A DNA stretch of 51,238 nt from Gammaproteobacteria bacterium (GCA_030432795.1 JAUILW010000001.1:1-51238); one strand, 5' to 3'; positions 27,750 through 47,934 are shown, counted from the stretch's first letter. Notes: generated by a model not told the origin, from the sequence alone. A program made the numbers and translations.

Positions 27750-29467
27750 GCAACCTGCTAGACAGAGCCGTCGCGGCTATCTCTCCCGAGCGCGGTGCAC
27801 GCCGGCTGGCTGCTCGGGCTCAATTCATCGCAAACCAGCAGGCGCTGCGCACCGTCGAGCAAATGGCCGCGCCGGCTGAGGTCGAGGCCTCCGGCCGCTA
27901 TCACGTCGATGGTGTTCCGGACACCCGCCACCGCTCCGCCTCGCGCACGCTGCGTTCGCTGACCAGTTGGCGATCGCAGCGGGGTAGCGCCCTGCGCAAC
28001 CTGCCCGAAGCCGAGCTGCATCGGATCGTCGGGCGCAGCCAGGACGCCTACCGGAACCACACGGTCGCTCGCTCGATCATGGGCCGGATGCGGACCGGTA
28101 TCGTTGGTGCCGGCCTGCGGCCGCATTCCGAGGTCAACGCGGAGGTGCTCGGCATCCGTGATCTGGTCGCGGATCAAATCAACTCGATGCTCGATGAGGT
28201 GTTCGCGTCCTGGGCGGAAGATCCGAAGGAATGCGACATTGCCGGCGAGCTCGATTTTTACCGGAAGCAGGACCAGGGCATCCTGGCAACGATGCTCGAT
28301 GGCGACATGTTCGTCTCCACACCGGTGGTCCGGCGTACCGGCGGGCAGTGGTTTCTGAAGACGCAGGAGATCTCCGCCTGGCGCGTCTCCAACCCGGACA
28401 ACGTACCGGACCGGTCCGACCTGGTGCAGGGCATCGAGCGCGCCGCCGATGGTTACCAGCTCCGGGTGCATGTTCGGCGGGGCGAGCCGGATGATCTCCT
28501 GGATCCGCTGGGCGCAATGATTTGGGACCCGCTCGACGTGTGGGGCGCGCGTACCGGCCGGCGCCGGGTGATGCACGTCCGCTGGGATCATGGCGAGGTC
28601 GGTTCGGTGCGCTGCGCGCCGATGCTGTCCCCGATCCTTGAGCCGTTGCAGCAGCTCGAAACCTACAAGCGCAGCGAACTGATGGCGGCCGTGGTGGCGT
28701 CGATGTTCACCGTCTTCATCTCCCGCGATCCGCTGGCCGGCGGCGAGCTGGACGACGATCTCAATCCGCTCGGGGCCTTCGCCGGCGCGGAGGACATCCC
28801 GACCAACGAGCGCGATTCGGCTGCGCGCGAACGCATCGAGCTGGGCTCCGGGACCATCGTGGATCTGGCGCCTGGCGAGAAACCTGAGATTGCGGACCCG
28901 AAACGGCCGAACTCGAACTACGCACCGTACTTCCGCTCGATCGTGGACAGCTCCGCGGCGGCCGTGGGCCTGCCGGGCGATATCGTGCTGATGGTGTACA
29001 ACACCAGCTACGCGGCTGCTCGGGCTGCGATGCTGGAAGCGCACCGCACGTTCATGACCCGGCGCGGCTGGTACGTCAGCTCCCACTCGGCTCCGATTCG
29101 CAACCTGGTGATCGATGAGGCTGTCGCATCCGGCCGCATCCGCCTGCCGGGCTATGCCGACCCGGTCCGCCGTCGCGCCTACCAGCAGGCCATGTGGGTC
29201 GGTCCTGCTCGGGGCTCGATGGACGAGGAGAAAGAGGCCAGGGCGGCCGCGGAGCGGATCCGCATCGGCATCTCCAACGAGTACGTCGAAACCGCCGCTA
29301 TGATGGGAGAGAATTGGCTGCGCATGCACAAGGGTCGCGCGCGTGCTCGGTTCTACAAACGTCGGGATGGCATCTTCCCTGGAGCTGAGCAGGGCGTTGC
29401 GCAAGCCGAGCCGATGCCGCCAGATCCGGAACCGGCAACACCAAGCGGAGGGGGCAACGATGCCTGA
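27746..29467 (+). CDS. Portal protein (lambda gpB family)
   Basis: Size (573 aa) and synteny W-portal-protease. ATGA coupling. Confidence 0.85.
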   Translation: MSNLLDRAVAAISPERGARRLAARAQFIANQQALRTVEQMAAPAEVEASGRYHVDGVPDTRHRSASRTLRSLTSWRSQRGSALRNLPEAELHRIVGRSQDAYRNHTVARSIMGRMRTGIVGAGLRPHSEVNAEVLGIRDLVADQINSMLDEVFASWAEDPKECDIAGELDFYRKQDQGILATMLDGDMFVSTPVVRRTGGQWFLKTQEISAWRVSNPDNVPDRSDLVQGIERAADGYQLRVHVRRGEPDDLLDPLGAMIWDPLDVWGARTGRRRVMHVRWDHGEVGSVRCAPMLSPILEPLQQLETYKRSELMAAVVASMFTVFISRDPLAGGELDDDLNPLGAFAGAEDIPTNERDSAARERIELGSGTIVDLAPGEKPEIADPKRPNSNYAPYFRSIVDSSAAAVGLPGDIVLMVYNTSYAAARAAMLEAHRTFMTRRGWYVSSHSAPIRNLVIDEAVASGRIRLPGYADPVRRRAYQQAMWVGPARGSMDEEKEARAAAERIRIGISNEYVETAAMMGENWLRMHKGRARARFYKRRDGIFPGAEQGVAQAEPMPPDPEPATPSGGGNDA

Positions 29468-30788
29468 TGACGTTCTGAACGATACCGAGGTCCTGGTCGC
29501 TTCGTCCGAGGGCAAGCCGCGCGGGCCTTTCGATGTCACCGGTCCGCTGGCGATCTCGAACTCCGCCCTGGAAAGCCTCGCCGCGAAAGAGGACCCGCTT
29601 GCCTTCATCGCCGATGAGACAAACGGCACCTGGGTCACCTGGCGTGCTTACCACCGCGGCTCCGTCGGCGTGCTGCAGATGCATGGGTCTGTCTGGTCGG
29701 CCTGGACCTGGCAGTCGCTCGCTGATGGGCTCTACGCGCTGCGTCATGAGCGGGCGGTGCGTTCGATCGTCCTGTCGCTGAACTCGCCCGGTGGTGTCTG
29801 GCAGGGCACCTTGCCGTTCGCTAAGGCAATCCGCGCCGTGTCCGAGGTGAAACCGGTGTATGCGCATGTCGGCGGTTCGGCCTGCTCGGCTGCCTACGTG
29901 GCCGCGGCTGCCTGCCGTGAGATCGTGATCTCCGCCTCCGCCGAGGTCGGCTGCCTGGGCAGCGTGGTTTTCATGATCGATGACACCAAGCTGCTGCGCG
30001 ATGCCGGCATCCGCCGTTTGCAATTTGTATCGAGCCAGACGCCCGCTAAAAACCTGTCGCCGCTCACTCCGGAAGGGGCCGCGCAACTCCAGGATAAGCT
30101 TGATCGGCACACCGATATCATGCTGGAGCACGTCGCCGAATTTCGGGGGGTTTCGCTGGAGGCGGTCTTGCGAGATTATGGCGCCGGAGATACCCGCATC
30201 GGTGCCGATGCAATCGAGCACGGCATGGCGGATCGGTTCGGTGAGCTGGAGACGCTCATCGTCGCTTTGCAGACTTCAGGAGTCCCCGATATGACCGTAA
30301 GAAATTTGACCGCCGGCGCCTTCTATCAAGCCACCGGTGTCGATCAGGTGCAGGCCGTTGAAACCGTCGACGCGCGGATCCTGGCCGAAATGCCAGGCGG
30401 CGAGACGCTGCTCGAATCGATCCGGGCTGAAGCGCACGCCGCTGGTCGCGCCGAGGGTCTGGCTGCCGCTGAGGCTGCTGATGAGGTCAGCGCTGAGCAA
30501 CTCCAAGCGGCGGCGAAAGCCGAGCGGACTCGGGTGCTGGAAATCCAGGCGCTGGTTGGCGATGCCGATGGTCTGGATGCGGTGGTGTCTGCCGCAATCA
30601 CCGAAGGGCTCACCGTCGAGGCTGCAAGCGCGAAAATTCTCACCGAGATTCGCACGCGTGGCATCGATCTGAACGCGTTGCGCACCGAGGCGCCGGCTCC
30701 GCTGGGCGCTGGTACTCCTGGTGGCGGCGAGATCAAAGCCAGCCAGCTGTGGGATCAGCGTTTGGCGAAAAGAAACGGCAAGAAGTAG
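29460..30788 (+). CDS. S49 (SppA/ClpP-fold) head maturation protease with C-terminal scaffold-like Ala-rich coiled coil (lambda gpC/Nu3-like)
   Basis: SLNSPGGVWQG and GGSACSAAYVAAAACREIV are S49-type motifs. The C-terminal half is helical and Ala/Glu-rich. Confidence 0.85.
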   Translation: MPDDVLNDTEVLVASSEGKPRGPFDVTGPLAISNSALESLAAKEDPLAFIADETNGTWVTWRAYHRGSVGVLQMHGSVWSAWTWQSLADGLYALRHERAVRSIVLSLNSPGGVWQGTLPFAKAIRAVSEVKPVYAHVGGSACSAAYVAAAACREIVISASAEVGCLGSVVFMIDDTKLLRDAGIRRLQFVSSQTPAKNLSPLTPEGAAQLQDKLDRHTDIMLEHVAEFRGVSLEAVLRDYGAGDTRIGADAIEHGMADRFGELETLIVALQTSGVPDMTVRNLTAGAFYQATGVDQVQAVETVDARILAEMPGGETLLESIRAEAHAAGRAEGLAAAEAADEVSAEQLQAAAKAERTRVLEIQALVGDADGLDAVVSAAITEGLTVEAASAKILTEIRTRGIDLNALRTEAPAPLGAGTPGGGEIKASQLWDQRLAKRNGKK

Positions 30789-30834: not shown

Positions 30835-31197
30835 ATGACCGTACTCACCGAAGGTCGGCACCGCGCCGAGTTCATCATCAACTACGATCCAAGCCTCTCG
30901 ATGGATGAGGTCACGCTGCTCGCTGGCGATTCGCTGGTGGTCGGCGAAGTGGTCGGTCGGCGCGAGCTGGACAACGTCATCGTCTCGCTCGATCCGCTGG
31001 CGACCGATGGTGGTGAGACGCCGTATGGCATTTCGATCGCGGCCGTGGCCGCCTCGACCTCCGCGCAAAAAGTGGCGATTCTTGCTCGATTCGCCGAGGT
31101 CGATGCCACGATGATTCAGTGGCCTGACTCGAACACCGAGAACGACGCGGTGCTCGGGAAGGCTGCGCTCGAAGCAAAGCTGATCGTTTTCCGCTAG
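30835..31197 (+). CDS. Head decoration protein (lambda gpD-like)
   Basis: 120-aa ORF between the protease and major capsid genes. The N-terminus MTVLTEGRHRAEFI is typical of this family. Confidence 0.7.
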   Translation: MTVLTEGRHRAEFIINYDPSLSMDEVTLLAGDSLVVGEVVGRRELDNVIVSLDPLATDGGETPYGISIAAVAASTSAQKVAILARFAEVDATMIQWPDSNTENDAVLGKAALEAKLIVFR

Positions 31198-31242: not shown

Positions 31243-32286
31243 ATGGCAACAATGGACATTTTCAACAACGACGCCTTCGGCCTGGTCGAGATGACCGATG
31301 CGGTCGAGAAGCTCGACTACCAGCCGCGGTTCTTGGGCCAGCTTGGCATCTTCCAGCCGCGTCCGGTTCGCACCGTATCGGTTGCGGTCGAGAAGAAAGC
31401 CGGGGTGCTCGCCTTGGTACCGACCAGCGCCCGAGGTGCTCCGCCTACGCCGCGCCGCGAGCGGGCCGGCGAGCGTGCCGACATTCGGGATTTCCGCGCG
31501 GTGCGGATCGCCGAACAGGACACCATCACCGCCGATGAACTCAGTGGTATTCGCGCGTTCGGTACTGAATCCGAACTCGTGCAGGTCATGGACGAGGTCG
31601 CCGATCGCTACCTGAAACTCGAGCGCGATATCGAGACCACCCTGGAGCACATGCGTCTCGGCGCGGTGCAAGGGATCGTCTACGATTCGGATGGCGCGAC
31701 CGAGCTGTTCAACTGGTTCGACTCCTGGGGCATCGCCCAGCCGGCGGAGGTCGATTTCGATCTGGACAACGCCACGCCGGCCTCCGGCGCGGTGCGCATT
31801 CTCTGCAACCAGATCATCCGGTCCATGGCGCGCGCGTCTAAGGGCGCCTGGGTTGAAGGCCAGTCCTACGTGATGGGCCTGTGCGGCGACACCTTTTTCG
31901 ATCAACTCACCGCCCACAGCGAGGTCCGTTCGACCTATCTGAACCAGGCGGAGGCCTCCGAGCTGCGCAACGACTTCGGTGCTCCGTTCGGCCAGGTCCG
32001 CTACGGCGGTATCACCTGGGTCAACTATCGCGGTACCGATGACGGTTCGACCGTCGCCGTCCCTGCGACCAAGGTGAAGTTCTTCCCGGTGCGCGCGCCT
32101 GGTGTTTTCGAGCACGTGATGGCGCCCGGTGAGACCATGTCCACCGTGAACCAGCCGGGCCGGCTGTTCATGCCGCTGATCGTCCCTGACGATAAGCGTC
32201 AGATGTTCGTGGATCTGGAGCTGTACTCGTACCCGCTGATGCTTTGCACGCGGCCCGAGATGCTGCTTCGGGGTAAGAACACCTGA
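31243..32286 (+). CDS. Major capsid protein (lambda gpE family)
   Basis: MATMDIFNNDAFGLVEMTDAVEKLDYQPRFLGQLGIF is a characteristic gpE-family N-terminus. AGGAG RBS. Confidence 0.9.
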   Translation: MATMDIFNNDAFGLVEMTDAVEKLDYQPRFLGQLGIFQPRPVRTVSVAVEKKAGVLALVPTSARGAPPTPRRERAGERADIRDFRAVRIAEQDTITADELSGIRAFGTESELVQVMDEVADRYLKLERDIETTLEHMRLGAVQGIVYDSDGATELFNWFDSWGIAQPAEVDFDLDNATPASGAVRILCNQIIRSMARASKGAWVEGQSYVMGLCGDTFFDQLTAHSEVRSTYLNQAEASELRNDFGAPFGQVRYGGITWVNYRGTDDGSTVAVPATKVKFFPVRAPGVFEHVMAPGETMSTVNQPGRLFMPLIVPDDKRQMFVDLELYSYPLMLCTRPEMLLRGKNT

Positions 32287-32388: not shown

Positions 32389-32429
32389 GTACCGTGCTGG
32401 CTCCGCTCAACCATCAAGGACGCCACATC

Positions 32430-32864
32430 ATGTCTGTCGAACCTGAATCTTCCCTGTTCGAGTACGTTCATCTGCCCGAGCACCTGGCGGCTGCCTCACG
32501 GCCGTTCGGTGAGCTGGCCTTCCAGCTGTATCGCTCCCTGCCAGCCGGGACCGAGCGCGCCGTCGCTCTGCGTAAGCTGCTGGAGGCGAAGGACGCCGCG
32601 GTTCGCGCGGTGCTGCTGTCGCGGCATTCCAAGGACCCGGCGCCGTCGCTGCAGGACCGGATCGTCGCGTATGTCGCGGAAAATCCGGGAACCTCGACCA
32701 TGGCCATGGCCGAGGAATTGAGCAGCGACCACTACCTTGTCTTTAGCACCGCCCACCGGCTGATGGATGGCGGTCGGCTCCGGTTCTCTGTGGGGGAGCG
32801 CGGCTGCCTTCTGTGGTTTGCTGAGTCCGATGAGGACGTCGCGGCGGAGGCTTCCGATGGCTGA
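32430..32864 (+). CDS. Hypothetical protein: N-terminal helical hairpin plus C-terminal winged-helix-like domain (144 aa)
   Basis: AAGGA RBS. Contains PFGELAFQLYRSLPAGTERAVALRKLLEAKDAAVRAV, followed by IVAYVAENPGTSTMAMAEEL. Confidence 0.6.
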   Translation: MSVEPESSLFEYVHLPEHLAAASRPFGELAFQLYRSLPAGTERAVALRKLLEAKDAAVRAVLLSRHSKDPAPSLQDRIVAYVAENPGTSTMAMAEELSSDHYLVFSTAHRLMDGGRLRFSVGERGCLLWFAESDEDVAAEASDG

Positions 32865-33177
32865 CTTCGCTTCGGTGATGGGCCTGATCGACGCGGCGAT
32901 CGACAACTCGGTGATCTCCGATGACCTGGTGCTGCCCGACCAGACCACTCAGCGCGGCCGGATGATCCGGGACCCGCTCGAACTCGAGACCGCTTTCGGC
33001 GGCCGGATCCAAGCCTCCGAGGTGGTGTTCCGAACGGCGATGACGGATCGCGTTGCTCGGCTTCGCTCTGGCGAGTTCGTGATGCAGGGCGGGCACCGGT
33101 ACCGCTTCGAGCGCCGGGATCCCGACCGCGGCGATTCACTTAACCGTGTCGATCTCGTTTTGCAGGACGCGCCGTAA
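32857..33177 (+). CDS. Putative head-tail joining/adaptor protein (106 aa)
   Basis: Position after the head module. Size and beta-rich composition. Functional assignment is by synteny only. Confidence 0.5.
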   Translation: MADFASVMGLIDAAIDNSVISDDLVLPDQTTQRGRMIRDPLELETAFGGRIQASEVVFRTAMTDRVARLRSGEFVMQGGHRYRFERRDPDRGDSLNRVDLVLQDAP

Positions 33178-33632
33178 TGCCGAACCTTCGACGCGCGGTC
33201 CTGGAGGCGGTGGTTCATCGCCTGAACATCGACCTGGCACCAGATCTGCCGCGTGCCAACGTCCGGCGCTTCGTCCTGGGCGAGCAGCTCGAAACGGGAA
33301 TGATCGGGGTCTGGAAGCACGAGGAGACCTCCGGCCGCATCGGCCGCTCCGCCCACACCGGCAACGCATCCCTGCGCCTGCTCGATGTGGTCACTCAGAT
33401 CGTGCAGCCGTGCGACCCGGAAGAGGCCGAACTCGCAAACGATCCGGCGGAGGACTGGGTGGTTTCTCGGCTTGCGGATTGGCGGCCGGACGTCGCTGGT
33501 GTTCACAAACTCGTGGAAAAGGAGACCGCGTGGGAAACTCTCGCGGGGGGTGCGGTGGTCTTCCGCGTCTCGACTATCGTATGGGTATGCGAATTGCAGA
33601 CCTTGTCTGCCGATCTGACGAAAGCTCAATAG
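33177..33632 (+). CDS. Putative head-tail connector / tail-terminator-class protein (151 aa)
   Basis: TAATG coupling. Assignment is by synteny only. Confidence 0.45.
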   Translation: MPNLRRAVLEAVVHRLNIDLAPDLPRANVRRFVLGEQLETGMIGVWKHEETSGRIGRSAHTGNASLRLLDVVTQIVQPCDPEEAELANDPAEDWVVSRLADWRPDVAGVHKLVEKETAWETLAGGAVVFRVSTIVWVCELQTLSADLTKAQ

Positions 33633-34360
33633 TCCACCTGGTGGGCGCGCACGCCGGCCGGCCTGCCTATGTCCTGGGCGGTGGTCCCTCGCTACCGCAG
33701 GCCTTCGAGGCGTTGTGCGTCGACCCGGACCAGGCGGTGCTGATCTCTGCCAACGAGCACGGCTGCGTGCTGTCGGAAACCACCGGTGCCCGGATGCCGG
33801 ATTACATCGTGTGCGTGGATGAGATCCAGGAGAAGCTCGCGCCGTACCCGGTGCCGGTGGTCGCGCCCAGGACCTGGGCGGATGTGCCGATGTTCGGTAA
33901 GCCGGTGCACCAGTCCGGAATGCTCGGCTGTTTCGTTGCCTGGATCATGGGGTGCGCGCCGATCGTGCCGCTGGGCATGGATTTGTACCGCGGGGGTACG
34001 TACTTCCACGCACCTGGTGCGTTCTCCACCGGCCGCAAGGTGTCGTTTGATGAGCTGCTCCGGCGCTGGGAGCGGTTGCTGGTGGCGATCGGCGGTGATG
34101 ACGTGATTCGGGTCCCGGCCGGCTCACCGCTGGAGACCTGGTTCTCGGTGTTCGACCCGGCCGAACGGGTCCAATCGGCCGCCTCCGCTCCGGACAGGGC
34201 CGCTGCGCTCGAAGTCCCGCGCTTGCGGATGCTGCGTTCCTGGAAGACGAAGCGCGGCGTACAGCTCAAGCCAGGCGATGTGGTGTGCGCATCTCGGCCG
34301 GCCTGCGGTAATTTGATCCGGGCGAAGCTGGCAGAGCTGGTGGATTCCGATGTTCGGTGA
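33581..34360 (+). CDS. MptE-like/DUF115 (Maf-type) putative glycosyltransferase
   Basis: GRPAYVLGGGPSLPQAFE...PDYIVCVD...SGMLGCFVAWIMGCAPIVPLGMDLY fits the DUF115 pattern. The start is uncertain (ATG 33581 or 33587 overlap the previous gene by about 50 nt; GTG 33641 is an alternative). Confidence 0.6.
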   Translation: MGMRIADLVCRSDESSIVHLVGAHAGRPAYVLGGGPSLPQAFEALCVDPDQAVLISANEHGCVLSETTGARMPDYIVCVDEIQEKLAPYPVPVVAPRTWADVPMFGKPVHQSGMLGCFVAWIMGCAPIVPLGMDLYRGGTYFHAPGAFSTGRKVSFDELLRRWERLLVAIGGDDVIRVPAGSPLETWFSVFDPAERVQSAASAPDRAAALEVPRLRMLRSWKTKRGVQLKPGDVVCASRPACGNLIRAKLAELVDSDVR

Positions 34361-34730
34361 GTTCCTGCGCCTGGCGCGTACTCGAGCAGGGCTCCAACGC
34401 GATCAACTCGCTCGGCTGCTGCGTTGTCCGGCCGGCGAGGCGAGCCACATCGAACTCGTGGAGCTGGGCCGGCTGGCACCGAGTTCGGAGTTCGCGGCCG
34501 AAACCTTCCGGGTCCTGCAGGCCTCGATCGTCTGCGGCCGTGCGCATTGGATGTCCGTCGCGGCGCTGACCGCGGATCTGAAACGCGATGGCGTCGAGCT
34601 GATGCGTTCGGAGGACCGGGATCTGCTGGAGCGGATCCACCGGGTGTTCCTGCAACCCAATTCTCCGCGTGCCGAGGTGCTGCGTACTCAGCTGCGGGCG
34701 ATCGCCGAAGTGGCCGGCGTGCTCGGGTGA
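34350..34730 (+). CDS. XRE-type helix-turn-helix protein (126 aa)
   Basis: FGEFLRLARTRAGLQRDQLARLL...IELVELG is an HTH_XRE-like N-terminus. Confidence 0.6.
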   Translation: MFGEFLRLARTRAGLQRDQLARLLRCPAGEASHIELVELGRLAPSSEFAAETFRVLQASIVCGRAHWMSVAALTADLKRDGVELMRSEDRDLLERIHRVFLQPNSPRAEVLRTQLRAIAEVAGVLG

Positions 34731-35581
34731 AGCATGCGTATGTGACCATCCCCGAGGGCCCGCACTACCGCCGGGATGCGTTCGCCGCGGGTCTGGAGGC
34801 AAACGGCTTCTCCGTGTCGTTTGGCAACGTCGGCGACCGCCAGGGCCGCGTTGGGGGCGGCGATCTGCTGGTGACCTGGAACATGCACCGTCGCCAGGAG
34901 ACGCTTGCAGCTACCTACCAGGCGGCCGGCGCTCGGGTCATCTGCTGCGAGAACGGCTACATCGGTGCGGATTCGGAAGGGCACCCGCTCTATGCCATGG
35001 CGCTCGACTCCCACAACGGCAGCGGTCGGTGGCCGGCTCCGCTGGAGATGCCGCGGTGGCCTGCGCTCGGCATTGTCGACGCCGGCGCTGTGGATCCGGA
35101 CCGCGAGGGCTACGTCCTGGTCGCTGCGCAGCGGGGCATCGGCTCCACCACCATGCGGTCGCCGGCCAACTGGCTGCCACGAGCCAAGCAGGCGGCGCGT
35201 GCGCTGTTTCCTGGCGTGGAGCTGCGCGTCCGCCTGCACCCAGGGCGTGCGCGGCCTGAGCGGTCCCTGGAGGCCGATCTGGCCGATGCTCGGGCGGTGC
35301 TTATCTGGTCATCGGCAGTCGGGGTGCGGGCGCTGGTGAGCGGCGTGCCGGTCGTTTACGATGCTCCGCGTTGGATCGGAGAAGCAGCAGCTTGCAAGCT
35401 GGACACCACATCACCGCGGGTCACCTATCCCGATGGCCGTGCCTATCGCCGCGCGCTCGAACAGATCGCCTGGGCGCAGTGGTCGCTTTCCGAAATCGCC
35501 CAGGGTCTGCCGTTCGCTTACCTGCTCAGCCATGACCGCGCGACCCGACTACGTCGCCGTCCTGAACCCGCGCAAGCGTAA
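34727..35581 (+). CDS. Putative glycosyltransferase, capsule-synthesis (KpsC/KpsS)-like, paralog 1
   Basis: GYVLVAAQRG...ELRVRLHPGR...VLIWSSAVGVRALVSGVPVV resembles the Capsule_synth Q...HP motif layout. GTGA-coupled start. Confidence 0.5.
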   Translation: MKHAYVTIPEGPHYRRDAFAAGLEANGFSVSFGNVGDRQGRVGGGDLLVTWNMHRRQETLAATYQAAGARVICCENGYIGADSEGHPLYAMALDSHNGSGRWPAPLEMPRWPALGIVDAGAVDPDREGYVLVAAQRGIGSTTMRSPANWLPRAKQAARALFPGVELRVRLHPGRARPERSLEADLADARAVLIWSSAVGVRALVSGVPVVYDAPRWIGEAAACKLDTTSPRVTYPDGRAYRRALEQIAWAQWSLSEIAQGLPFAYLLSHDRATRLRRRPEPAQA

Positions 35582-36422
35582 AGCGCGGCGAGTCCTGCAT
35601 GCCTGGGTCCGCGGTACCGGGGCTCGAACCGTCACCGCTTCAGATCTGGCGAAGCTCGAAGTTCGGAAAATCTCACCGGTTTTCTATGGCGTCGATGAGG
35701 TGACGCTGCCGGCGTTTGCCCTGGCCGAGCGGGCTCGTCGGTATGTCTACATCGACAACGGCTATCTCCGCTCGAAGTACCACCAGGGGCCTGGGCCGGT
35801 GATGTTCCGCGTGACCTGGGCAGCTCGGCAGGTGGATGGCCTGGGTACCAGCGATGGGTCCCGGTTCGCCAAGCTCGGCATCGAGCTGCAGCCGTGGCGG
35901 CGGCGCGGCGATCACATCGTGGTCGCGGTGCAGTCGGACTGGTGGTACCAACGGCGAGGCCTGCAGCGTGCGTCCTGGGTGGCCGAGGTGCTGGCGGGGC
36001 TTTCCCAGGTCACGGACCGGCCGGTGGTGGTGCGGGAGAAGCCGACCCGGTACCGGCCGGCTCCGCCGATCGCGGATGTGCTCAGGGATGCCTGGTGCAC
36101 CGTGTCGCTCGACTCAAACGTGGCGATCGATGGATTGATTGCCGGGATCCCGGCCGTGGTTCTCGGTCCGTGTGCCGCTGCGGCCGTGTCAGGTACCGCT
36201 TTACACCAGGTGGTGGATCCGCCGATGCCTGCCGACCGGCTGCGCTGGTGCCATGTGCTGGCGGACAATCAATGGTCACTCGGCGAGATCGCTGCCGGCA
36301 TGGCCGCCTCCGCGATCGAACGCGGCAACCAATCAGGAGCCAATCATGAAAAACGACGTACCCGAACGCGGGAAGGTCTACGGGGACGCGACCTGCGAGA
36401 CCTGTCTGCACCGTCGGCGTGA
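35532..36422 (+). CDS. Putative glycosyltransferase, paralog 2 of 34727..35581
   Basis: HIVVAVQSD...VVVREKPTR...SLDSNVAIDGLIAGIPAVV. It shares the C-terminal QWSL.EIA.G motif with paralog 1. Confidence 0.5.
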   Translation: MTARPDYVAVLNPRKRKARRVLHAWVRGTGARTVTASDLAKLEVRKISPVFYGVDEVTLPAFALAERARRYVYIDNGYLRSKYHQGPGPVMFRVTWAARQVDGLGTSDGSRFAKLGIELQPWRRRGDHIVVAVQSDWWYQRRGLQRASWVAEVLAGLSQVTDRPVVVREKPTRYRPAPPIADVLRDAWCTVSLDSNVAIDGLIAGIPAVVLGPCAAAAVSGTALHQVVDPPMPADRLRWCHVLADNQWSLGEIAAGMAASAIERGNQSGANHEKRRTRTREGLRGRDLRDLSAPSA

Positions 36423-36630
36423 TCTTTGCACCGCGGCACCGCCGCTCCCAGGGCCTGGGGGCGGCGTAGGGAGCTTTCCGTATGTGGCGCCCGGCATGGT
36501 CTGCGCGCTGCACCCGGCCGTGCGTGCGCGCCTGGAGGCGCCCGCCAAGCCATCACCTGGACCGCGGGCTAAGGCGCAGGCAAAGGCAAAGGCGAAAGCG
36601 AAGGCGCCGGCGAACAAGGCGGGCGGTTAA
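36346..36630 (+). CDS. Small Cys/His protein with (K-A)n basic tail (94 aa)
   Basis: Strong AGGAG RBS. Contains C-x2-C...C...C-x2-H. C-terminus PRAKAQAKAKAKAKAPANKAGG. Confidence 0.6.
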   Translation: MKNDVPERGKVYGDATCETCLHRRRDLCTAAPPLPGPGGGVGSFPYVAPGMVCALHPAVRARLEAPAKPSPGPRAKAQAKAKAKAKAPANKAGG

Positions 36631-37415
36631 TGGGCCTGGGCGATGAGCTGATGGCGGCCGGTGCCGCCGAGCTGACTGGTCGCAAGCATTCGGCCCGCGT
36701 CAAGATCCTCGATCGTCACGGCCGCGGCCGCTGGCACGAGCTGTGGTTCGGCTCGAAGCACATTCTCGGTCCTGACCAAAACGAACCGGGCATGATCACC
36801 ATGGTCGACGGTCCGGGGGTGCGTCCGTATATCGAGGCGATCACTCCGGACCACTTCGTCTGGCGGCCTTATCACCCGATCCGGTACCAGCTGCCGCTGG
36901 TGCGCGTCGACATGGCCGCTGATGGGCTGAACAAACACGGCGTCGAGCTGCCGGCGCGCTACGTCCTGGTTGAGCCGAACATCAAACCGCGGGCTTCGCC
37001 GAACAAGCAGTGGCCGACCGATCGCTGGTTCGAGTTTTCCCGGCTCTGCCGCGATGCCGGCATCCATCTGGTGCAGGCAATTCCCCGCGTCGACTCGAAA
37101 CGCTACCCGCGCCTGGCCGGCGTCGAGGCGGTGCTCACGCCCACCGTGTGGGAGGCGCTGGCGTTGCTGGACGGGGCGATCGCGTATGTGGGTCACGAGG
37201 GCTTTTTTCACCACGCCTCCGCCGCGCTTTTGAAACGCGCGGTGGTGATCTACGGAGGCTTCATCTCGCCGGATATCACCGGCTATGTCGATCAACGAAA
37301 CCTGTTCACTGGCGGCTCTCCCTGCGGGAGCCGTAAACCCTGCGAGCATTGCCGGCTGGCCATGGAGGCCATCACTCCGGCCGACGTGCTCGCGCAACTC
37401 GAGGAGATCATCTGA
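36630..37415 (+). CDS. Glycosyltransferase family 9 (heptosyltransferase-like)
   Basis: MGLGDELMA...YVLVEPNIKPRASPNKQWPTDRWFEFSRL...AYVGHEGFFHHASAALLKRAVVIYGG matches the GT9 pattern. Confidence 0.7.
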   Translation: MGLGDELMAAGAAELTGRKHSARVKILDRHGRGRWHELWFGSKHILGPDQNEPGMITMVDGPGVRPYIEAITPDHFVWRPYHPIRYQLPLVRVDMAADGLNKHGVELPARYVLVEPNIKPRASPNKQWPTDRWFEFSRLCRDAGIHLVQAIPRVDSKRYPRLAGVEAVLTPTVWEALALLDGAIAYVGHEGFFHHASAALLKRAVVIYGGFISPDITGYVDQRNLFTGGSPCGSRKPCEHCRLAMEAITPADVLAQLEEII

Positions 37416-38197
37416 TGTTCGAATGGCATGGTTTGTTTCTACCCGCGGGCGAAAAGCACCTGGTGGATTGGATGCGCAAGAAGCGACAACGGCTCGCGGA
37501 TGGCCGACCGACCTACCAGCAGACGAAATATGCGGCCGCCCTGAATCACCTACCGGCACACGCGAGGGGCCTGGCGCTCGATGTCGGCGCGCATGCCGGG
37601 CTCTGGTCGATGCAGATGATGCAGGACTTCGACTTCGTCGCGGCCGTCGAGCCGGTGGTCGAACACGCCGCGTGCTGGCTGCGCAACGTCGGCGGAATCT
37701 CAGACGAGGTGACCGCCTACCAGTCATGCGAGCATAGCGCCGCGACGGCCGTCGGCTTGAACGCGAATGCACGCTGCCGCCTGTTCCGGGTAGCCGTCGG
37801 GGCTGCACCGCGCGATCGTGTCGAACTCATCACCGCTCCGAGCTCCTCCGGGGACACGTTCATCCGGCCGGAGGGCGCTGTGGCAACTCCGGGGCTGGTG
37901 CATGCCGAAACCGTGCGGATGTTCACCGTCGATGAACTGGCGCTACCGGAAGGTGTACCGGTGAACTTGTTTAAGATCGATTGCGAGGGCTACGAGATCG
38001 AGGTCCTGCGTGGTGCGCGTGGGTTGATCAGTCGTGACCGGCCGGTGATCGTCGTGGAGCAAAAGCCGGGCAAGGGTAGGCAGTTTGGCTTCTCCGACAC
38101 GGATGCGGTCGAGTATCTGAAGTCGACCCATGGCTACGAGGTGGCGCGTGAAATTTCGGGCGATTTCATCATGTGGCACCAGTGGTCGCAGCCGTGA
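37415..38197 (+). CDS. FkbM-family SAM-dependent methyltransferase
   Basis: LDVGAHAGLWSMQM and LFKIDCEGYEIEVLRGA are hallmark FkbM motifs. Confidence 0.8.
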   Translation: MFEWHGLFLPAGEKHLVDWMRKKRQRLADGRPTYQQTKYAAALNHLPAHARGLALDVGAHAGLWSMQMMQDFDFVAAVEPVVEHAACWLRNVGGISDEVTAYQSCEHSAATAVGLNANARCRLFRVAVGAAPRDRVELITAPSSSGDTFIRPEGAVATPGLVHAETVRMFTVDELALPEGVPVNLFKIDCEGYEIEVLRGARGLISRDRPVIVVEQKPGKGRQFGFSDTDAVEYLKSTHGYEVAREISGDFIMWHQWSQP

Positions 38198-38889
38198 TCC
38201 GGTGGTTCATCGGGTACGACCGCCGTGAACCGGTCGCCTATCATGTGCTCGCGCATAGCCTTCTGGAGCTGAGCTCCGAGCCAATCGCCATCATCCCGGT
38301 GGCGGTGGACCACTTCCGCGCCTTCTTCAATCGGCCGCCGAGTCCCTGGTCATCGACCGAGTTCTCGTTCTCTCGTTTCCTGGTGCCTCACCTGGCCGGT
38401 GGTGAGGGTTGGGCGGTGTTCTCCGATTGCGACATGCTGTGCCTCGAAGATCCTGCGCGGCTGTGGGCGCTGCGCGATGAGGCGCTTGATCTGCTGGTGG
38501 TGAAGCATGACCACCAGCCAACCGAGAACACTAAGTTCCTCGGCCAACCGCAGACCGCCTACCCGCGTAAAAACTGGAGTTCCGTGATGTTGATCAACTG
38601 CGCGCGGATGGCTCCGCTCTGGTCGCCGGCCTATGTGGAGAACGCGTCCGGTCTGGAGCTGCACCGATTCGTCGGTGTGCCTGACGACCGGATCGGTGAT
38701 CTGCCGGCCGGCTGGAATCACCTGGTGGACGTGAATCCTCCGAACCCGAACGCGGACCTGGTGCATTGGACGCTCGGGGGCCCGTACTTCCGTGGTTTCG
38801 AGCGCGTCGAATTCGCGGAGCAATGGTGGCAGACTTACCGCCGTATGACCGACGCCGCTGATCCCGCGGTGCCGCCATCTAACATCTAG
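38194..38889 (+). CDS. GT-A fold glycosyltransferase (GT8-like)
   Basis: IRWFIGYD...STEFSFSRFLVPHLAGGEGWAVFSDCDMLCLEDPARLW...YPRKNWSSVMLINC...LHRF...WNHLV. The start is set at the GTGA overlap (GTG 38173 is possible). Confidence 0.65.
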   Translation: MIRWFIGYDRREPVAYHVLAHSLLELSSEPIAIIPVAVDHFRAFFNRPPSPWSSTEFSFSRFLVPHLAGGEGWAVFSDCDMLCLEDPARLWALRDEALDLLVVKHDHQPTENTKFLGQPQTAYPRKNWSSVMLINCARMAPLWSPAYVENASGLELHRFVGVPDDRIGDLPAGWNHLVDVNPPNPNADLVHWTLGGPYFRGFERVEFAEQWWQTYRRMTDAADPAVPPSNI

Positions 38890-38907
38890 CGACGAGCCGG
38901 AGGGCAC

Positions 38908-39693
38908 ATGTATCCAGCAATTGCGACCAACCTGAAGCGCGGGAAAGGCGGCATGTACATTGCAGCCTGGGATGGCGCGACTCCGCCTGCCGAGAACGAT
39001 ATGGGCGTGAAAGTGGGGAACTGCGAAAGCATCACCTACGGGCCCGAGGACGTGCAAACGTCGGAGAAGTACTCGAGCACGCAAAACAACACGCCGCTCC
39101 TGCTCAAGCAGACCGATCGCGCGGGCTGGCGCCTGGTGGCTCAAACCGACGAGCACCTGAAGGACAACCTGCTCTTGTTCTTCGGGGCAACGGATACCGA
39201 GCTGACGCAAAGCGCGGTGAACCAGCAGGTGGTGACGCTTTCCGATGTGATCGTCGGCCGCAGCTACCTGACCGGCTTTTATGGGCTCAGCCAAGTCGAG
39301 GTGTACAAGGGCTCGACCGTCCTGACCGCGAACACCGATTACAAGCTCTACGCCGATCGCGGGGTGATCGAAATTCTGAGCGGCGGTGCGGTGGTCGACG
39401 GCGATGATCTGGATGTCGATTTCGATGTGTCTGCCAAGACCTACAACCGGCTGGCGGTGGGGCAGCTCATCAACCGAAACGTGAAGGTCACCTATATCGC
39501 CGACGACCAGAATACCGACGGCGTTGGCGCCAAGGACATCATCGTCATTCCGAAAATGGCCGTTGCGCTGGAGGGCGAGTATGGCCTGGTGTCTGACGAC
39601 TTCGCCGCCATGACGCTCGCGTTCTCCGCGCTCGATGATTCGGATAACTATCCAGGTCGCGGCCTGGGCTGGCTGATCCGCGGCGCGGTCTGA
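38908..39693 (+). CDS. Major tail (tube) protein
   Basis: GGAGGG RBS. The 261-aa ORF lies directly upstream of the G/GT chaperone pair and the tape measure gene. Confidence 0.7.
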   Translation: MYPAIATNLKRGKGGMYIAAWDGATPPAENDMGVKVGNCESITYGPEDVQTSEKYSSTQNNTPLLLKQTDRAGWRLVAQTDEHLKDNLLLFFGATDTELTQSAVNQQVVTLSDVIVGRSYLTGFYGLSQVEVYKGSTVLTANTDYKLYADRGVIEILSGGAVVDGDDLDVDFDVSAKTYNRLAVGQLINRNVKVTYIADDQNTDGVGAKDIIVIPKMAVALEGEYGLVSDDFAAMTLAFSALDDSDNYPGRGLGWLIRGAV

Positions 39694-39695
39694 TC

Positions 39696-40271
39696 GTGAG
39701 CGTCTCGCAGGTCTTCAACGGGCGCGAGTTTGTTGTGATGAACATGCGCGCTCGTACCTTCGTTTGTGACAACGCTCAGGTGGCGATGCTCCAGGAGCTG
39801 GGCCTCGATGCGATGTCGAACGCGCCGGACCCGGATGAAGATCCCGAGGTGTACATCTCGCGCCTCACGGCGAAGGTGATCGGTACTCGGCAGGTGCATC
39901 GGATCGTTGCGCATTACCTGCTGCCGCTCGGCAAAACCGAGACCGATTGGACGCCCGAGCTGGCCGCGGAAATTGCCGAGCACCTGGCCGGCGTTCAGGA
40001 GGAATCCGAACGCGCGGCCTTGTTCGAATTGGCCGCGGAGCTGACCTTCGGTTTTTTTCAGAGAGGGGTGCTTTGGCTGGAGACTTCCCGGAAGTCTTTG
40101 GACGACCTAGCGGTCGCAATGAGCGCTCTGGACGATCTCTCAAACCGGGGAACCGCGGCACACTCGAGCAGCTCGTCGGCGAGGCCTGGGCGCCGTATGT
40201 TCGGCGAATCGCTCGTGACGACTATCGCCGGGCTTTGGAGGTCGCTCACTCGCCGATCCGCGAGGGCCTGA
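39696..40271 (+). CDS. Tail assembly chaperone (gpG-like, zero-frame product)
   Basis: Position between the tube and tape measure genes. It contains a slippery heptamer with an overlapping -1 frame ORF. Confidence 0.7.
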   Translation: MSVSQVFNGREFVVMNMRARTFVCDNAQVAMLQELGLDAMSNAPDPDEDPEVYISRLTAKVIGTRQVHRIVAHYLLPLGKTETDWTPELAAEIAEHLAGVQEESERAALFELAAELTFGFFQRGVLWLETSRKSLDDLAVAMSALDDLSNRGTAAHSSSSSARPGRRMFGESLVTTIAGLWRSLTRRSARA

Positions 40272-40429: not shown

Positions 40430-42997
40430 GTGGCGGGAAATGACGTTAGGGTCCGGCTCAGTCCCGAGGGCGTTCGTGAGGTGCAGCAGGCGCTCCGGCG
40501 CGTGCAGCGGGAATCGGACAAGGTCAACCGGGAAAGCGCGGCCGGTGTCAATAAACTCAGCTCCGCCATCGCCGGCCTCGGCCGCGTTGCTCGGGGCCTG
40601 GGCATCACCGCAGTGGGTACCGGCGTGGTCGCTCTGGCGCGCAATGCCGGCGATGCCGCGGACGCCATCCAGAAGCTGCAGCTGCGCGTGGGGGGCACCG
40701 CCGAGGACCTGTCCGCGCTTGCGTTCCTCACCCGTACCAACGACGTCGAATTCACTCAGCTGGTCGCAACGCTCGGCCGTATCGGCGAGAGGTACGACCT
40801 ACTCAAAACCGGCAACGCGGACGTGGTCCGCCAATTCAGAACCCTGGGTCTGACCTTCGAGGATATCGAGGACCTTTCCGTTCCTGAGATCCTGGAGCTG
40901 ATCGCTCAGCGGATGGCGGCGTTGCCCTCGGCGGTCGAGCGCTCTCGGGTCGCGGTTCGTTTGTTCGGTCGCTCTGGCAACCAGCTGATTCCGTTGTTGC
41001 TCGACCTCGCCCAGCGCGGCCTGCCTGGTGCTGGCGCCGCTGCGCGGGCGTTCGGACTCGAGTTTTCGCAGGCCATGGTCGATGCCGCCGCGACATCGAA
41101 CGATCAGCTAGCTCTGGTGGATGCCCGTATCGATGGCCTGGCGACCCAATTCCGCGCCGGTTTCCTGCCGCAGATTCTGGCCGCGACCGGCGGAGGCGTC
41201 GAGGGCTTCCAGCAGATGGCCGAAGCCGCGCAAACGATGGGCCAGGTGATCGGCCAGGTGATCCGCACCTTCGTGGCTGCTCTGGCGATTCCGGTGAACT
41301 TCGTCACCGCCTTCATTCGCGCTCGGTTCCGCGACCTGGAGGCGTTGTCGATTGCCGGCAAGCAGCTCCTGGAGCGCGACTTCTCCGGCGCCGCGCTGAC
41401 CATCGGCGGTCGCCTCTCCGCCAACGTCGCGGAGATCAAGGACGCCTTTGCCGGCATCGCCGATGACGCGGTGGATGCCTTTGACGCGGCCGTGGGCAAT
41501 CTGCCGGATCTGCCCGAGCCGCCGGATCGCAGCGGCGGTGGTGGTGCCGGTGGCATCGATGACGACCTTGCGAAAATCAAGCGCGAGGAGGCGCAACGGC
41601 TGCAGGTGTTGCGCGCCGGCCTGCAAGCCGAGGCGAGCGTCCGCGCGGCTCAACGGCAACGGGACGCGGATGCCGATCAACGCCTGCTCGATGCCGGCCT
41701 GCTCTCCCTGCAGGAGTTCCTCGATCGCCGGGTGGCTGCCGTGCGTGCTGCCGGCGACGAGCAGGTCCGCGATCTGACCGCGCAGATCGATGCGCTGCGT
41801 GCAACGACGTCTCTGGATCCGCAGGTCCGCGCCAGCCAAATCGCGGCGATCGAGGCGCAGATTGCTGTTGCTCGAATCAACACCGAGCGCGAGCTGGATG
41901 CTCTGTCTGCCGATCGTGTGACGCGCGAGCTGGCTGCCAAGCGCGAGGTGCTGTCCGTTGAGGAGCAGCTGCTCGGCCTGGAAGGGCGGCGCGAGGAGGC
42001 CGCTCGGCTCGCCGTGCAAGCGCAGACGGCTGCCCTGCGTGAACGCCTGCGTGCTGCTGGGCAGTCCGCTTCGACCATCGACGCGCTCGTCTCGCGCTTC
42101 GAGAACGCAAGCCTACGCCGGCTCAACTTCGATGAGGTGGTGCGCAATGCGGAGGCCGCGTTTACCTCCTTGGAAAACGCGCGCACCCGAATCGAGCAGG
42201 ATGTGCAACTGGGCATCACCACGCAGCTGGGCGCCCAGCAGCGGATCCTGCAACTCGAACAAGCGCGGCTCCCGGTGCTGCGGCAAATCGCCGAGGCCTC
42301 GCTGGAAGCGGCAAGGGCAACCGGTGATCCGGCGCTGATCGCCCAGGCGGAACAGCTCGCCCTGCGGGTGCAGCAGGTCGCCGTGTCGGTCGAACTGGCA
42401 AGCAACTCCTTCGCCCGGTTCCGCGACCAAGCCGAGCAGGCGGCTCAAAACCAACTCACCGAGTTCCTCGCCAACGGCATCCAACAGGCCGACTCCCTGA
42501 AGGACGCCTTTAAGCAACTGGCGCGCTCGGTGATTGATGACCTCAAGCGGATTGCCGCGCAGGCGCTCGCCACGTCGATCGTGCGGGGCTTCTCGGGAGC
42601 GTTCGGCAATGGGGCCGGCGCTGTGACGGCGGCCGGTGGCGGCCTGCTCAGCGGGCCTGGAAGCGGGACCTCCGACTCGATTGCGGCGCGCGTATCCAAC
42701 GGCGAGTTCATCGTGCGTGCCGCGTCCGTGGCGCAGCCTGGCGTGCTGCCGCACCTGTTCGAACTGAACCGCAAGGGGGCGAGCGCGTTGCAGCCGTCGG
42801 CTCCGCGGTTCGACTTCCCGCGGTTCAACGAGGGCGGGCTCGCGCAGACCGACATTCGCAGTCCGTTCCGCGGCTCGCTTGAAGTGGGCCTGGCCGATGG
42901 CCTGGAGCTGCGCAATTCGCCCGTGGTCAACGATGCTACGATTCTCGAAATCATCAGGCGCCACCCGCGCCAAATCACGGAGGCGCTCGGGCGATGA
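40430..42997 (+). CDS. Tape measure protein (855 aa)
   Basis: Long Ala/Gln/Arg-rich helical protein after the G/GT pair. GTG start. Confidence 0.85.
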   Translation: MAGNDVRVRLSPEGVREVQQALRRVQRESDKVNRESAAGVNKLSSAIAGLGRVARGLGITAVGTGVVALARNAGDAADAIQKLQLRVGGTAEDLSALAFLTRTNDVEFTQLVATLGRIGERYDLLKTGNADVVRQFRTLGLTFEDIEDLSVPEILELIAQRMAALPSAVERSRVAVRLFGRSGNQLIPLLLDLAQRGLPGAGAAARAFGLEFSQAMVDAAATSNDQLALVDARIDGLATQFRAGFLPQILAATGGGVEGFQQMAEAAQTMGQVIGQVIRTFVAALAIPVNFVTAFIRARFRDLEALSIAGKQLLERDFSGAALTIGGRLSANVAEIKDAFAGIADDAVDAFDAAVGNLPDLPEPPDRSGGGGAGGIDDDLAKIKREEAQRLQVLRAGLQAEASVRAAQRQRDADADQRLLDAGLLSLQEFLDRRVAAVRAAGDEQVRDLTAQIDALRATTSLDPQVRASQIAAIEAQIAVARINTERELDALSADRVTRELAAKREVLSVEEQLLGLEGRREEAARLAVQAQTAALRERLRAAGQSASTIDALVSRFENASLRRLNFDEVVRNAEAAFTSLENARTRIEQDVQLGITTQLGAQQRILQLEQARLPVLRQIAEASLEAARATGDPALIAQAEQLALRVQQVAVSVELASNSFARFRDQAEQAAQNQLTEFLANGIQQADSLKDAFKQLARSVIDDLKRIAAQALATSIVRGFSGAFGNGAGAVTAAGGGLLSGPGSGTSDSIAARVSNGEFIVRAASVAQPGVLPHLFELNRKGASALQPSAPRFDFPRFNEGGLAQTDIRSPFRGSLEVGLADGLELRNSPVVNDATILEIIRRHPRQITEALGR

Positions 42998-47897: not shown

Positions 47898-47934
47898 GGT
47901 TGCCGGCGCCGCCTCCAGGGCCGACCATAGCCGC

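Follow-up and report, generated by a model that had tools for sequence, protein, structure and literature searches.

A syntenic phage module of predicted glycan-assembly enzymes embedded among virion structural genes

Results

An eight-gene cassette separates the capsid-proximal genes from the major tail gene

We analyzed a 51,238-bp contig of a tailed phage with 64 % GC (GCA_030432795.1, JAUILW010000001.1:1-51238, filed under Gammaproteobacteria bacterium), called the window throughout. Positions 33581-38889, downstream of the capsid-proximal genes and upstream of the major tail gene, hold a cassette of eight co-directional, overlapping open reading frames (ORFs), p1 to p8 (Table 1), which very probably encode a glycan-assembly pathway of some kind. 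A first-pass annotation, made by reading the sequence alone, had listed the eight ORFs and their junctions, and every one of them is present in the sequence. The overlaps are 11 nt for p1/p2, 4 nt (GTGA) for p2/p3, 50 nt for p3/p4, 77 nt for p4/p5, 1 nt (TAATG) for p5/p6, 1 nt (TGATG) for p6/p7 and 4 nt (GTGA) for p7/p8. The start of p1 is either 33581 or 33587, and both overlap the upstream gene. At the other end, an 18-nt spacer with a GGAGG separates p8 from the major tail gene. The cassette had been placed between head-tail connector genes and the tube gene: the tube gene is indeed downstream, while the upstream genes are connector genes by position only (Table 1).

Table 1. Genes of the cassette and of the structural region around it. 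Coordinates are positions in the window.
Feature	Coordinates	Strand	Length	Assignment
p1	33581-34360	+	259 aa	DUF115/MptE-like; GT42 (Cst-II)-like putative CMP-ulosonic-acid transferase
p2	34350-34730	+	126 aa	XRE-type helix-turn-helix; Pfam HTH_31, 29.8 bits (cut-off 27)
p3	34727-35581	+	284 aa	KpsC/WbbB-fold (GT107/GT99/GT140-like) glycosyltransferase, by predicted structure
p4	35532-36422	+	296 aa	Divergent full-length paralog of p3
p5	36346-36630	+	94 aa	Small basic protein, CxxC...C...C, C-terminal (KA)n tail
p6	36630-37415	+	261 aa	GT9 (WaaC/WaaF)-like GT-B; short N-terminal domain, C-terminal Cys cluster
p7	37415-38197	+	260 aa	FkbM-family S-adenosylmethionine (SAM)-dependent methyltransferase
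p8	38194-38889	+	231 aa	GT8-like GT-A (retaining-type) glycosyltransferase; invariant DxD, D78/D80
Large terminase	25300-27516
Portal	27746-29467
S49-type protease	29343-30788
Head decoration protein	30835-31197
Major capsid protein, lambda gpE-type	31243-32286	+		phrog_29, E=5.7e-47; ortholog in L002 has PF03864 (Phage_cap_E); candidate acceptor
Three small post-capsid genes	32394-33632			PHROGs families of unknown function, or no match
Major tail (tube) protein, Ig-like domain	38908-39693	+		phrog_807, E=2e-29; ortholog in L002 has PF27730; candidate acceptor, outside the enzyme set
Tape-measure protein	40430-42997

The eight ORFs are real genes and not chance ORFs of a GC-rich genome, because they are conserved in other contigs. 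Two contigs 98 % identical to the window (L002 and L003) carry the same eight genes with the same order and overlaps. A diverged contig of 7.7 kb (L111) also carries all eight, with protein identities of 69 % for p1, 36 % for p2, 61 % for p3, 56 % for p4, 47 % for the Cys-rich N-terminal part of p5, 55 % for p6, 59 % for p7 and 70 % for p8. Homologs of p3, p4, p6, p7 and p8 with 30-50 % identity occur in dozens of other viral contigs. The cassette genes are genuine and translationally coupled. Between 30.5 and 41 kb we found neither a sigma-70-like promoter nor a convincing terminator, and the GC content of the cassette (0.658, versus 0.643 for the rest of the genome) and its third-position GC content match those of the genome. 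Lacking a promoter, a terminator and a compositional difference, the cassette was rejected as an independent moron. No transmembrane segments were predicted in p1-p8.

p3 has the predicted fold of KpsC without its Asp nucleophile, and p4 is a divergent paralog

p3 and p4 had been read in the first-pass annotation as two paralogous transferases similar to KpsC and KpsS. p3 has no match in Pfam or NCBIfam. p4 has none in NCBIfam and a single sub-threshold match in Pfam, to the unrelated DUF4031 (E=0.14), and neither protein matches Pfam Capsule_synth (PF05159) at E up to 1. We built an AlphaFold 2 (AF2) model of p3 on 51 homologs, with a predicted local distance difference test score (pLDDT) of 90.8, and compared it with the PDB using Foldseek. 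[quoted passage not shown] When the p3 sequence profile was searched against PDB sequences, KpsC alone was matched; the p4 family profile retrieved nothing meaningful there. p3 and p4 are related to each other both as single sequences (BLASTP, E=7e-7) and as families (hhalign, 99.9 %, E=3.9e-36 over 236 columns).

The p3 family comprises 4,476 clusters at 50 % identity in an exhaustive profile search, and the p3 homologs listed carry no Pfam domain. A word search with the family returned more than 100 clusters, and all 105 listed are on contigs of 65 kb or less. With the longest contig among these 105 best clusters at ~65 kb, the p3/p4 family looks phage-borne and not chromosomal. Among the BFVD matches of the p3 model were also several proteins of Tetraselmis virus 1, a giant algal virus, annotated 'capsule polysaccharide biosynthesis protein' (E 1e-13 to 1e-7); the KpsC-like fold is thus in use among eukaryotic giant viruses as well.

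The GT99, GT107 and GT140 families share a (K/R)xHP motif that binds cytidine monophosphate (CMP) and a QXXXD motif whose absolutely conserved Asp forms a covalent adduct with Kdo (PMC10148158, PMC12887879). We compiled motif statistics from 248 members of the p3 family and 38 of the p4 family. Residues of p3 and KpsC were matched through HMMER anchors (P146/P170, HP/HP) and the KpsC peptide 148-192 (PMC10148158), not by superposition. The CMP-binding motif is kept in the p3 family as RxHP (R169 in 90 %, H171 in 99 %, P172 in 100 %), and HMMER aligns its HP with the HP of KpsC. E75, within AENGY, is Glu in 248/248 members and aligns with LEDGF of KpsC, where the general base is Glu66. The Q motif of p3 reads Q135-R-G-I-G139, and its Gln is kept in 89 % of members; position 139, at the site of the Asp nucleophile, is Gly in 245 of the 248 and Asp in none. 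In the p4 family the Glu base gives way to an invariant Asp, and variable residues replace HP. Its Q-S-D motif has an Asp at Q+2, in 21/38 members, and there is no conserved acid in the Q motif.

Of the first-pass reading, the fold of p3 and the paralogy of the pair stood; both proteins lack the QXXXD Asp that defines KpsC/KpsS-type enzymes, and p4 lacks the HP motif as well. Since p3 is without the Asp nucleophile and p4 is also without HP, the two cannot be filed in GT99, GT107 or GT140 despite the KpsC scaffold. Their mechanism may differ from that of the retaining Kdo transferases, and p4 may use another donor or be non-catalytic. Use of CMP-Kdo and formation of a beta-Kdo linkage by p3 are putative and are suggested only indirectly, by a KdsD/KpsF-type neighbour gene in a homologous cassette (L005, below).

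p1, p6, p7 and p8 resemble transferases and a methyltransferase of glycan synthesis

Profile and structure searches, which the first-pass annotation had proposed, returned glycosyltransferase and methyltransferase families or folds. For p1, the proposal had been a DUF115/Maf-type transferase. p1 matches Pfam MptE-like with E=1.3e-5 and 25.4 bits, below the curated cut-off of 34.6, and three p1 homologs carry PF01973. The p1 family aligns with the family of phrog_4603 and CcrColossus gp126 ('alpha-2,3-sialyltransferase') in hhalign (97.5 %, E=5.7e-12), and the phrog_4603 family weakly matches Cst-II sialyltransferases (E 0.014-0.1) and MptE in the PDB. Maf proteins carry extra domains beyond the catalytic one. 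p1, at 259 aa, has the size of a GT42 catalytic domain and is therefore no Maf-type multi-domain protein; the DUF115 half of the proposal was recovered below the curated cut-off.

p6 had been described as a GT9 heptosyltransferase-like enzyme, with a reminder that BAHT relatives of GT9 glycosylate proteins. It matches Pfam GT9 (PF01075) with E=1.4e-3 and 18.5 bits, below the cut-off of 22, and TIGR02193 with E=1.2e-5, far below the cut-off. The p6 family profile matches the PDB structures of WaaF (1psw, E=8.2e-7) and WaaC (2gt1/6dfe, E=2.4e-5) over the C-terminal donor domain only. At E up to 1 the PDB matches were WaaF, WaaC and one uncharacterised GT9 protein, and no BAHT chain was among them; p6 looks GT9-like, with matches to LPS heptosyltransferases and none to BAHT enzymes. 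The p6 family also has a C-terminal cluster, C-G-x-R-x-P-C-x-H-C, in which C232, C238 and C241 are invariant or nearly so, and this conservation suggests a metal site at residues 232-241. The protein-heptosylating BAHT enzymes have an iron finger.

The assignments of p7 and p8 in the first-pass annotation, an FkbM methyltransferase and a GT8-like GT-A enzyme, were both borne out. p7 exceeds the curated cut-offs of Methyltransf_21 (PF05050; 54.4 bits, cut-off 22.7) and TIGR01444 (67.7 bits, cut-off 37.7) and also matches the phrog_8156 methyltransferase. p8 matches phrog_28018 (E=3e-43); its score against Pfam GT8 (PF01501), 12.1 bits, is below the cut-off of 24.3, and close homologs carry PF01501. 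Its AF2 model (pLDDT 87.8) matched the GT8 (xylosyltransferase) domain of LARGE1, LgtC, GlyE, WbbM and glycogenin in Foldseek, with E values of 1e-9 to 1e-5 for the LARGE1 GT8 domain, LgtC, GlyE and glycogenin. p8 has more than 7,600 homolog clusters, some named as glycosyltransferases of lipopolysaccharide (LPS) biosynthesis, and some of the homologs 53-58 % identical to it are on bacterial chromosomes or on long contigs of metagenome-assembled genomes. An FkbM methyltransferase gene and a p8-like gene (44 % to p8, called a 'galT-like' glycosyltransferase) also lie together at 8294-9687 of an uncultured podovirus (L001, MW202512.1), a few genes downstream of the major capsid gene and without p3, p4 and p6; by its gene content, this pair is a minimal two-enzyme version in another phage type.

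The two remaining genes, p2 and p5, are specific to the lineage of the window and absent from the other cassettes examined. The first-pass readings of p2 as a helix-turn-helix protein and of p5 as a small Cys/(KA)n protein both agree with what we found. p5 has no family match in Pfam, PHROGs or NCBIfam. It is present in L002/L003 and in L111, where it shares 47 % identity along 51 residues (E=2.4e-15), keeps the Cys pattern and likewise ends in a KAKAKA tail, and where the p4/p5 overlap is similar (56 nt, versus 77 nt in the window). A spurious ORF was rejected for p5 because of this conservation.

Six of the genes form a conserved module across unrelated phage backbones

A pattern scan with the p3 alignment found at least 285 viral contigs in IMG/VR. 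Of these, 80 were retrieved. By tblastn with the window proteins we counted 89 loci with p3. The module has the order p1-like, p3, p4, [variable genes], p6, p7, p8, all on one strand. p4 is present in 81/89 loci and adjoins p3 in all 81; p8 is present in 62/89, p7 in 58/89 and p6 in 56/89, many of the gaps being contig ends. A p1 homolog of the gp126 type is upstream of p3 in 47 loci and mostly directly adjacent. phrog_4603 is the commonest family in the upstream flanks (33/150 ORFs), which also contain portal, major head and tail fibre proteins. Predominant among the three downstream ORFs are proteins for head closure (21) and tail completion (20), a virion structural protein (20) and a head-tail adaptor (14). 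Among the genes interspersed in the cassettes, class-I SAM methyltransferases are the most frequent (33/150); the others include epimerases/dehydratases, DegT aminotransferases, C-methyltransferases, SIS isomerases and nucleotidyltransferases.

In these loci the capsid and tail proteins are unrelated to those of the window, and tblastn with the window capsid and tube proteins found nothing there. Thus, p1, p3, p4, p6, p7 and p8 are a conserved syntenic module that occurs across unrelated phage backbones and is usually embedded among head, connector and tail genes. The first-pass annotation knew of no such large cassette at this genomic position in proteobacterial siphoviruses. The position is not unusual, however: at least 285 IMG/VR contigs, as well as the CcrColossus group of siphophages, carry the same module in their structural regions.

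Among 50,697 isolated phage genomes, p3 homologs were found in 15 records only, all of them Caulobacter jumbo siphophages (CcrColossus, CcrSC, CcrBL9, CcrPW and the Bertelyvirus phages). The module corresponds to gp126-gp131 of CcrColossus, which lie between tail proteins and the endolysin. Their order is nearly that of the window: gp126 is p1-like, gp127 p3-like (39 %), gp128 p4-like (31 %), gp129 p8-like (35 %), gp130 a methyltransferase and gp131 a p6-like GT9 protein (33 %). The same genes are at the end of the tail-gene block in the other phages of the group. Unlike the window, a 51-kb genome with a lambda-like head, these are jumbo prolate siphophages of 280-327 kb; they have p8, the methyltransferase and p6 in that order, lack p2 and p5, and their methyltransferase has no tblastn match to the FkbM protein p7. 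The CcrColossus genome paper does not discuss gp126-gp131, and our literature searches found no published description of the module, which is apparently undescribed.

We also compared the window with 19 prophages whose capsid is 32-59 % identical to its own. None has a cassette gene within 10 kb. By this gene content, the module is accessory to this head type. The tail genes of these prophages are also unrelated to those of the window, and so the neighbourhood comparison envisaged in the first-pass annotation shows an accessory module and no clean insertion site.

Homologous cassettes point to Kdo and heptose as the sugars

We screened the 42 window ORFs outside the cassette, 11 of them against PHROGs only and not Pfam. 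No gene for sugar-nucleotide synthesis, no Wzx/Wzy/Gtr gene and no acetyltransferase gene was among them, as the first-pass annotation had stated, and neither a flippase nor a polymerase, ligase or exporter was found.

Such genes for sugar synthesis do occur in homologous cassettes, with matches that are below equivalog cut-offs yet highly significant. L005 has a KpsF/KdsD-type arabinose-5-phosphate isomerase (E=4e-54) between its p3-like and p4-like genes. In the L009 cassette, a GmhA sedoheptulose-7-phosphate isomerase (E=2.5e-30) and an RfaE-domain-II heptose-1-phosphate adenylyltransferase (E=1.3e-28) are beside the GT9-like gene, and L004 has a PseC-like aminotransferase. Arabinose-5-phosphate isomerase is the first enzyme of Kdo synthesis, and CMP-Kdo and adenosine diphosphate (ADP)-heptose are precursors of the LPS inner core that a Gram-negative host supplies. 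Taken together with the enzyme folds, the KdsD-, GmhA- and RfaE-like genes suggest that the donors are most likely CMP-Kdo (or a related CMP-ulosonic acid) and ADP-heptose. With no sugar-nucleotide genes in the window, its enzymes most likely draw on the LPS precursors of the host, which would explain a version of the module that has no synthesis genes.

The L009 cassette (GCA_034680565.1, JAXOUH010027841, 20-12240) is an expanded version of 12 kb. Besides GmhA and RfaE-II it has two epimerase/dehydratases of the short-chain dehydrogenase/reductase type, a short-chain dehydrogenase, a further methyltransferase and a split acetolactate-synthase-like thiamine-pyrophosphate enzyme, and a SASA-domain (sialate O-acetylesterase-like) protein is encoded downstream. 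The extra enzymes suggest the synthesis of an unusual branched or modified sugar.

Genome context of the cassette

The head module of the window is lambda-like, as judged from PHROGs and from the Pfam families of L002. The longest ORFs of the first two post-capsid genes (32394-32864 and 32767-33177) overlap by ~100 nt. Gene calls for the same two genes in L002 are shorter, at 144 aa and 106 aa with an 8-nt overlap, and the starts of the longest ORFs are thus probably too far upstream. The distal tail genes (45845-51117, + strand) are of the RcGTA type (phrog_1082, 778 and 1101), and the first ORF of the window (11-769, + strand) has an Rcc01698-like C-terminal domain. With RcGTA-type tail genes at both contig ends, the tail module seems to span the ends, suggesting either a complete but permuted genome or a prophage that was cut; we found no exact terminal repeat. 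Against isolated phages, blastn of window positions 33000-40000 and tblastn with the tail tube protein gave no match, and with the tube protein a scan of IMG/VR turned up a single weak locus.

Three further genes of the window stand apart from the cassette. A ParB N-terminal domain fused to an N6/N4 DNA methyltransferase (23491-24885, + strand; phrog_498, E=5e-121) is encoded just before the small terminase, and a second ParB_N protein of ~602 aa at 4656-6467 on the - strand. A 1404-aa protein (16071-20285, + strand), which the first-pass annotation had mentioned as a possible acceptor, has an apiosidase-like glycoside-hydrolase domain (PF13204, E=1.5e-39) and a collagen-binding-type domain. 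By these domains it looks like a polysaccharide-degrading enzyme, possibly a depolymerase; its gene is upstream of the packaging genes and outside the tail-gene block.

Discussion

The cassette and known glycan systems

Several known systems share features with the cassette. In mycobacteriophages (Corndog gp35-gp38; clusters O and F1), an O-methyltransferase and several glycosyltransferases are encoded in the virion structural operon (PMC4351075); the Corndog gp35-gp38 enzymes are not virion components and were proposed to modify the capsid (PMC4351075). Unlike the window, these phages have an actinobacterial host and an acceptor that is known from experiment. Their annotation suggests no KpsC-fold, GT9 or DUF115 enzymes and no Kdo or heptose.

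The chlorovirus PBCV-1 encodes cytoplasmic glycosyltransferases (A064R, A075L and others) that assemble the glycan of its major capsid protein. One capsid glycosyltransferase of PBCV-1 (2p72; PMC11571054) was among the Foldseek matches of p8. The PBCV-1 system also has methyltransferase activity, and its glycan is methylated. In contrast to the window, PBCV-1 belongs to the giant viruses of eukaryotes and its glycans are N-linked; its enzymes share no more than a generic GT-A fold with those of the cassette.

Among bacterial enzymes, p3 resembles KpsC/KpsS (GT107), WbbB (GT99) and KrkA (GT140) in its modified GT-B fold, its (K/R)xHP motif, its Gln and its Glu base, and the p3/p4 pair, like KpsC, consists of two modules. 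p3 and p4 differ from KpsC, WbbB and KrkA in the Gly that p3 has for the Asp nucleophile, the loss of HP in p4, a shorter length of 260-290 aa and in being phage-borne. The C-terminal donor-binding domain of p6 matches WaaC and WaaF below the curated cut-offs for the GT9 and TIGR02193 models, and ADP-heptose pathway genes occur in a homologous cassette. p6 is ~80 residues shorter than WaaC and WaaF, with a reduced N-terminal (acceptor) domain and the conserved C-terminal Cys cluster. Kdo, which is suggested as the sugar of p3, is the residue to which WaaC attaches heptose.

Seroconversion modules (GtrABC, Oac, Wzy-type) are likewise phage-encoded and act on glycans. Unlike the cassette, they are membrane-bound and expressed by the prophage; they are encoded close to the attachment site or the tail-fibre genes, and their substrate is the O-antigen in the periplasm. 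Pfam searches found no such component (GtrA/B/C, acetyltransferase, polymerase), and p1-p8 have no transmembrane segments, in agreement with the first-pass view that this is not a classical seroconversion module.

What the cassette may glycosylate

We tentatively favor, at a confidence somewhat short of even, the possibility that the co-expressed cassette builds a glycan that is attached to a surface-exposed virion protein. In this scheme the cassette would be transcribed and translated within the late (morphogenesis) operon, where late expression is presumed. The five transferases p1, p3, p4, p6 and p8, together with the methyltransferase p7, would form a soluble cytoplasmic assembly line that draws on host CMP-Kdo or a related CMP-ulosonic acid, ADP-heptose, a uridine diphosphate (UDP)-hexose and SAM. 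The resulting oligosaccharide would be short, acidic and O-methylated, similar to the LPS inner core; its acceptor would be the capsid, decoration or tail tube protein, and progeny particles would leave the cell with a glycan coat. A virion acceptor is suggested by the position of the module, its presence in virulent phages and the analogy with mycobacteriophage Corndog. It is also suggested by the embedding among head, neck and tail genes of unrelated backbones, by translational coupling, by isolated carriers that are only Caulobacter jumbo siphophages with the module at the end of the tail-gene block, by a p3/p4 family that looks phage-restricted, by the lack of export or membrane machinery and by the precedent in cluster O mycobacteriophages.

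Several observations weigh against a virion acceptor. No known type of protein-priming O-glycosyltransferase was recognised among p1-p8: p1 has only the size of a GT42 catalytic domain, and p6 matches LPS heptosyltransferases and not BAHT. All the enzyme families normally act on lipid-linked or glycan acceptors of LPS, lipooligosaccharide (LOS) or capsule. In mycobacteriophages, C-terminal tails are reported to be glycosylated (PMC12619734). Residues 1-347 of the window capsid align end to end with homologs from prophages without the cassette, and the capsid thus has no cassette-specific C-terminal tail. No Ser/Thr-rich tail stood out in the capsid, the tube or neighbouring proteins, and none of the virion genes adjoins the module in all lineages. 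The donor and mechanism of p3 and p4 are also uncertain, and p4 is perhaps non-catalytic, given the missing Asp nucleophile and, in p4, the missing HP. Acceptor and late expression are putative.

In a competing explanation, the enzymes remodel an envelope glycoconjugate of the host during infection (LPS inner or outer core, capsule, or a primer of exopolysaccharide) and could thereby mask or destroy the receptor, exclude superinfecting phages or keep progeny off debris. The characterised KpsC/WbbB/KrkA, WaaC/WaaF, LgtC/GT8 and Cst-II enzymes all come from LPS, LOS or capsule synthesis, the predicted Kdo and heptose are sugars of the LPS inner core, and the p8 homologs 53-58 % identical include chromosomal ones and some named 'LPS biosynthesis glycosyltransferase'. 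We nonetheless consider envelope remodelling unlikely. The module is inside structural operons without a promoter of its own, which is not the usual position for lysogenic conversion, and its isolated carriers are only Caulobacter jumbo siphophages that have it between tail proteins and the endolysin. The p3/p4 family seems restricted to phages, the screened window ORFs include no flippase, Wzy, Gtr, ligase or exporter, and new LPS would probably reach the surface too late in a lytic cycle. The lack of an evident protein-priming enzyme would fit a free or lipid-anchored glycan that stays off the virion, such as a poly-Kdo-type glycolipid like the KpsS/KpsC product, which might serve as a cofactor of assembly or lysis, as a decoy or as a matrix component released at lysis. 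A lipid-borne Kdo oligomer is the natural product of KpsC-type enzymes (PMC10148158), and the adjacent single-module p3 and p4 recall the two alternating modules of KpsC. We give this product a lower probability still, for no lipid-binding or membrane-anchoring segment is predicted, no export genes were found, the p3/p4 motifs differ from those of KpsC, and the consistent embedding among virion genes would be left unexplained. Modification of DNA, by a glycan, possibly with heptose, on hydroxymethylated bases as a protection against restriction, is very improbable. Phage glycosyltransferases related to LPS enzymes do put hexose, N-acetylhexosamine or heptose on 5-hydroxymethylcytosine, in TET/5mYOX-linked clusters that can be close to structural genes (bioRxiv 10.1101/2023.12.21.572611), and the ParB-N6/N4 DNA methyltransferase gene of the window adjoins the terminase. 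Yet no TET/5mYOX protein, thymidylate-synthase-like hydroxymethylase or C5-cytosine methyltransferase is among the 42 screened ORFs, 11 of them compared with PHROGs only, or among the 25 most frequent flank families of the other loci; six transferases and methyltransferases, three of them of the CMP-ulosonic-acid type, far exceed known DNA-glycosylation pathways; and the neighbours of the cassette are head, neck and tail genes and not replication genes.

A more specific version of the virion-glycan proposal is that, in many phages of Gram-negative bacteria, the culturable Caulobacter jumbo phages among them, the portable six-enzyme module hijacks the CMP-Kdo and ADP-heptose of the host and coats the virion with a heavily O-methylated, core-like glycan, and that p3 and p4 are a new glycosyltransferase family with the KpsC/WbbB fold which works without a covalent Asp-Kdo intermediate and is perhaps inverting. 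We regard this full combination as doubtful.

Implications

Virion glycosylation by virus-encoded enzymes is of a known kind; what the module would add to it are its combination of enzymes, the sugars predicted for it, a new host range and a branch of the Kdo-transferase fold without the nucleophile. The wide conserved phage module is a more interesting result than a single unusual cassette. The question of the acceptor is directly testable, because the Caulobacter phages that carry the module grow on C. crescentus. Whatever the acceptor, the p3/p4 family amounts to an experiment of nature in which the Kdo-transferase fold has lost its nucleophile, and it bears on the mechanism of glycosyltransferases and on their classification in CAZy. 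If virion proteins of phages of Gram-negative bacteria are indeed glycosylated by this module, capsid and tail surfaces would have to be read differently in cryo-electron microscopy and proteomics, the stability, aggregation, grazing and immune clearance of phages would be seen in a new light, and the annotation of 'auxiliary' glycosyltransferases in viromes would change.

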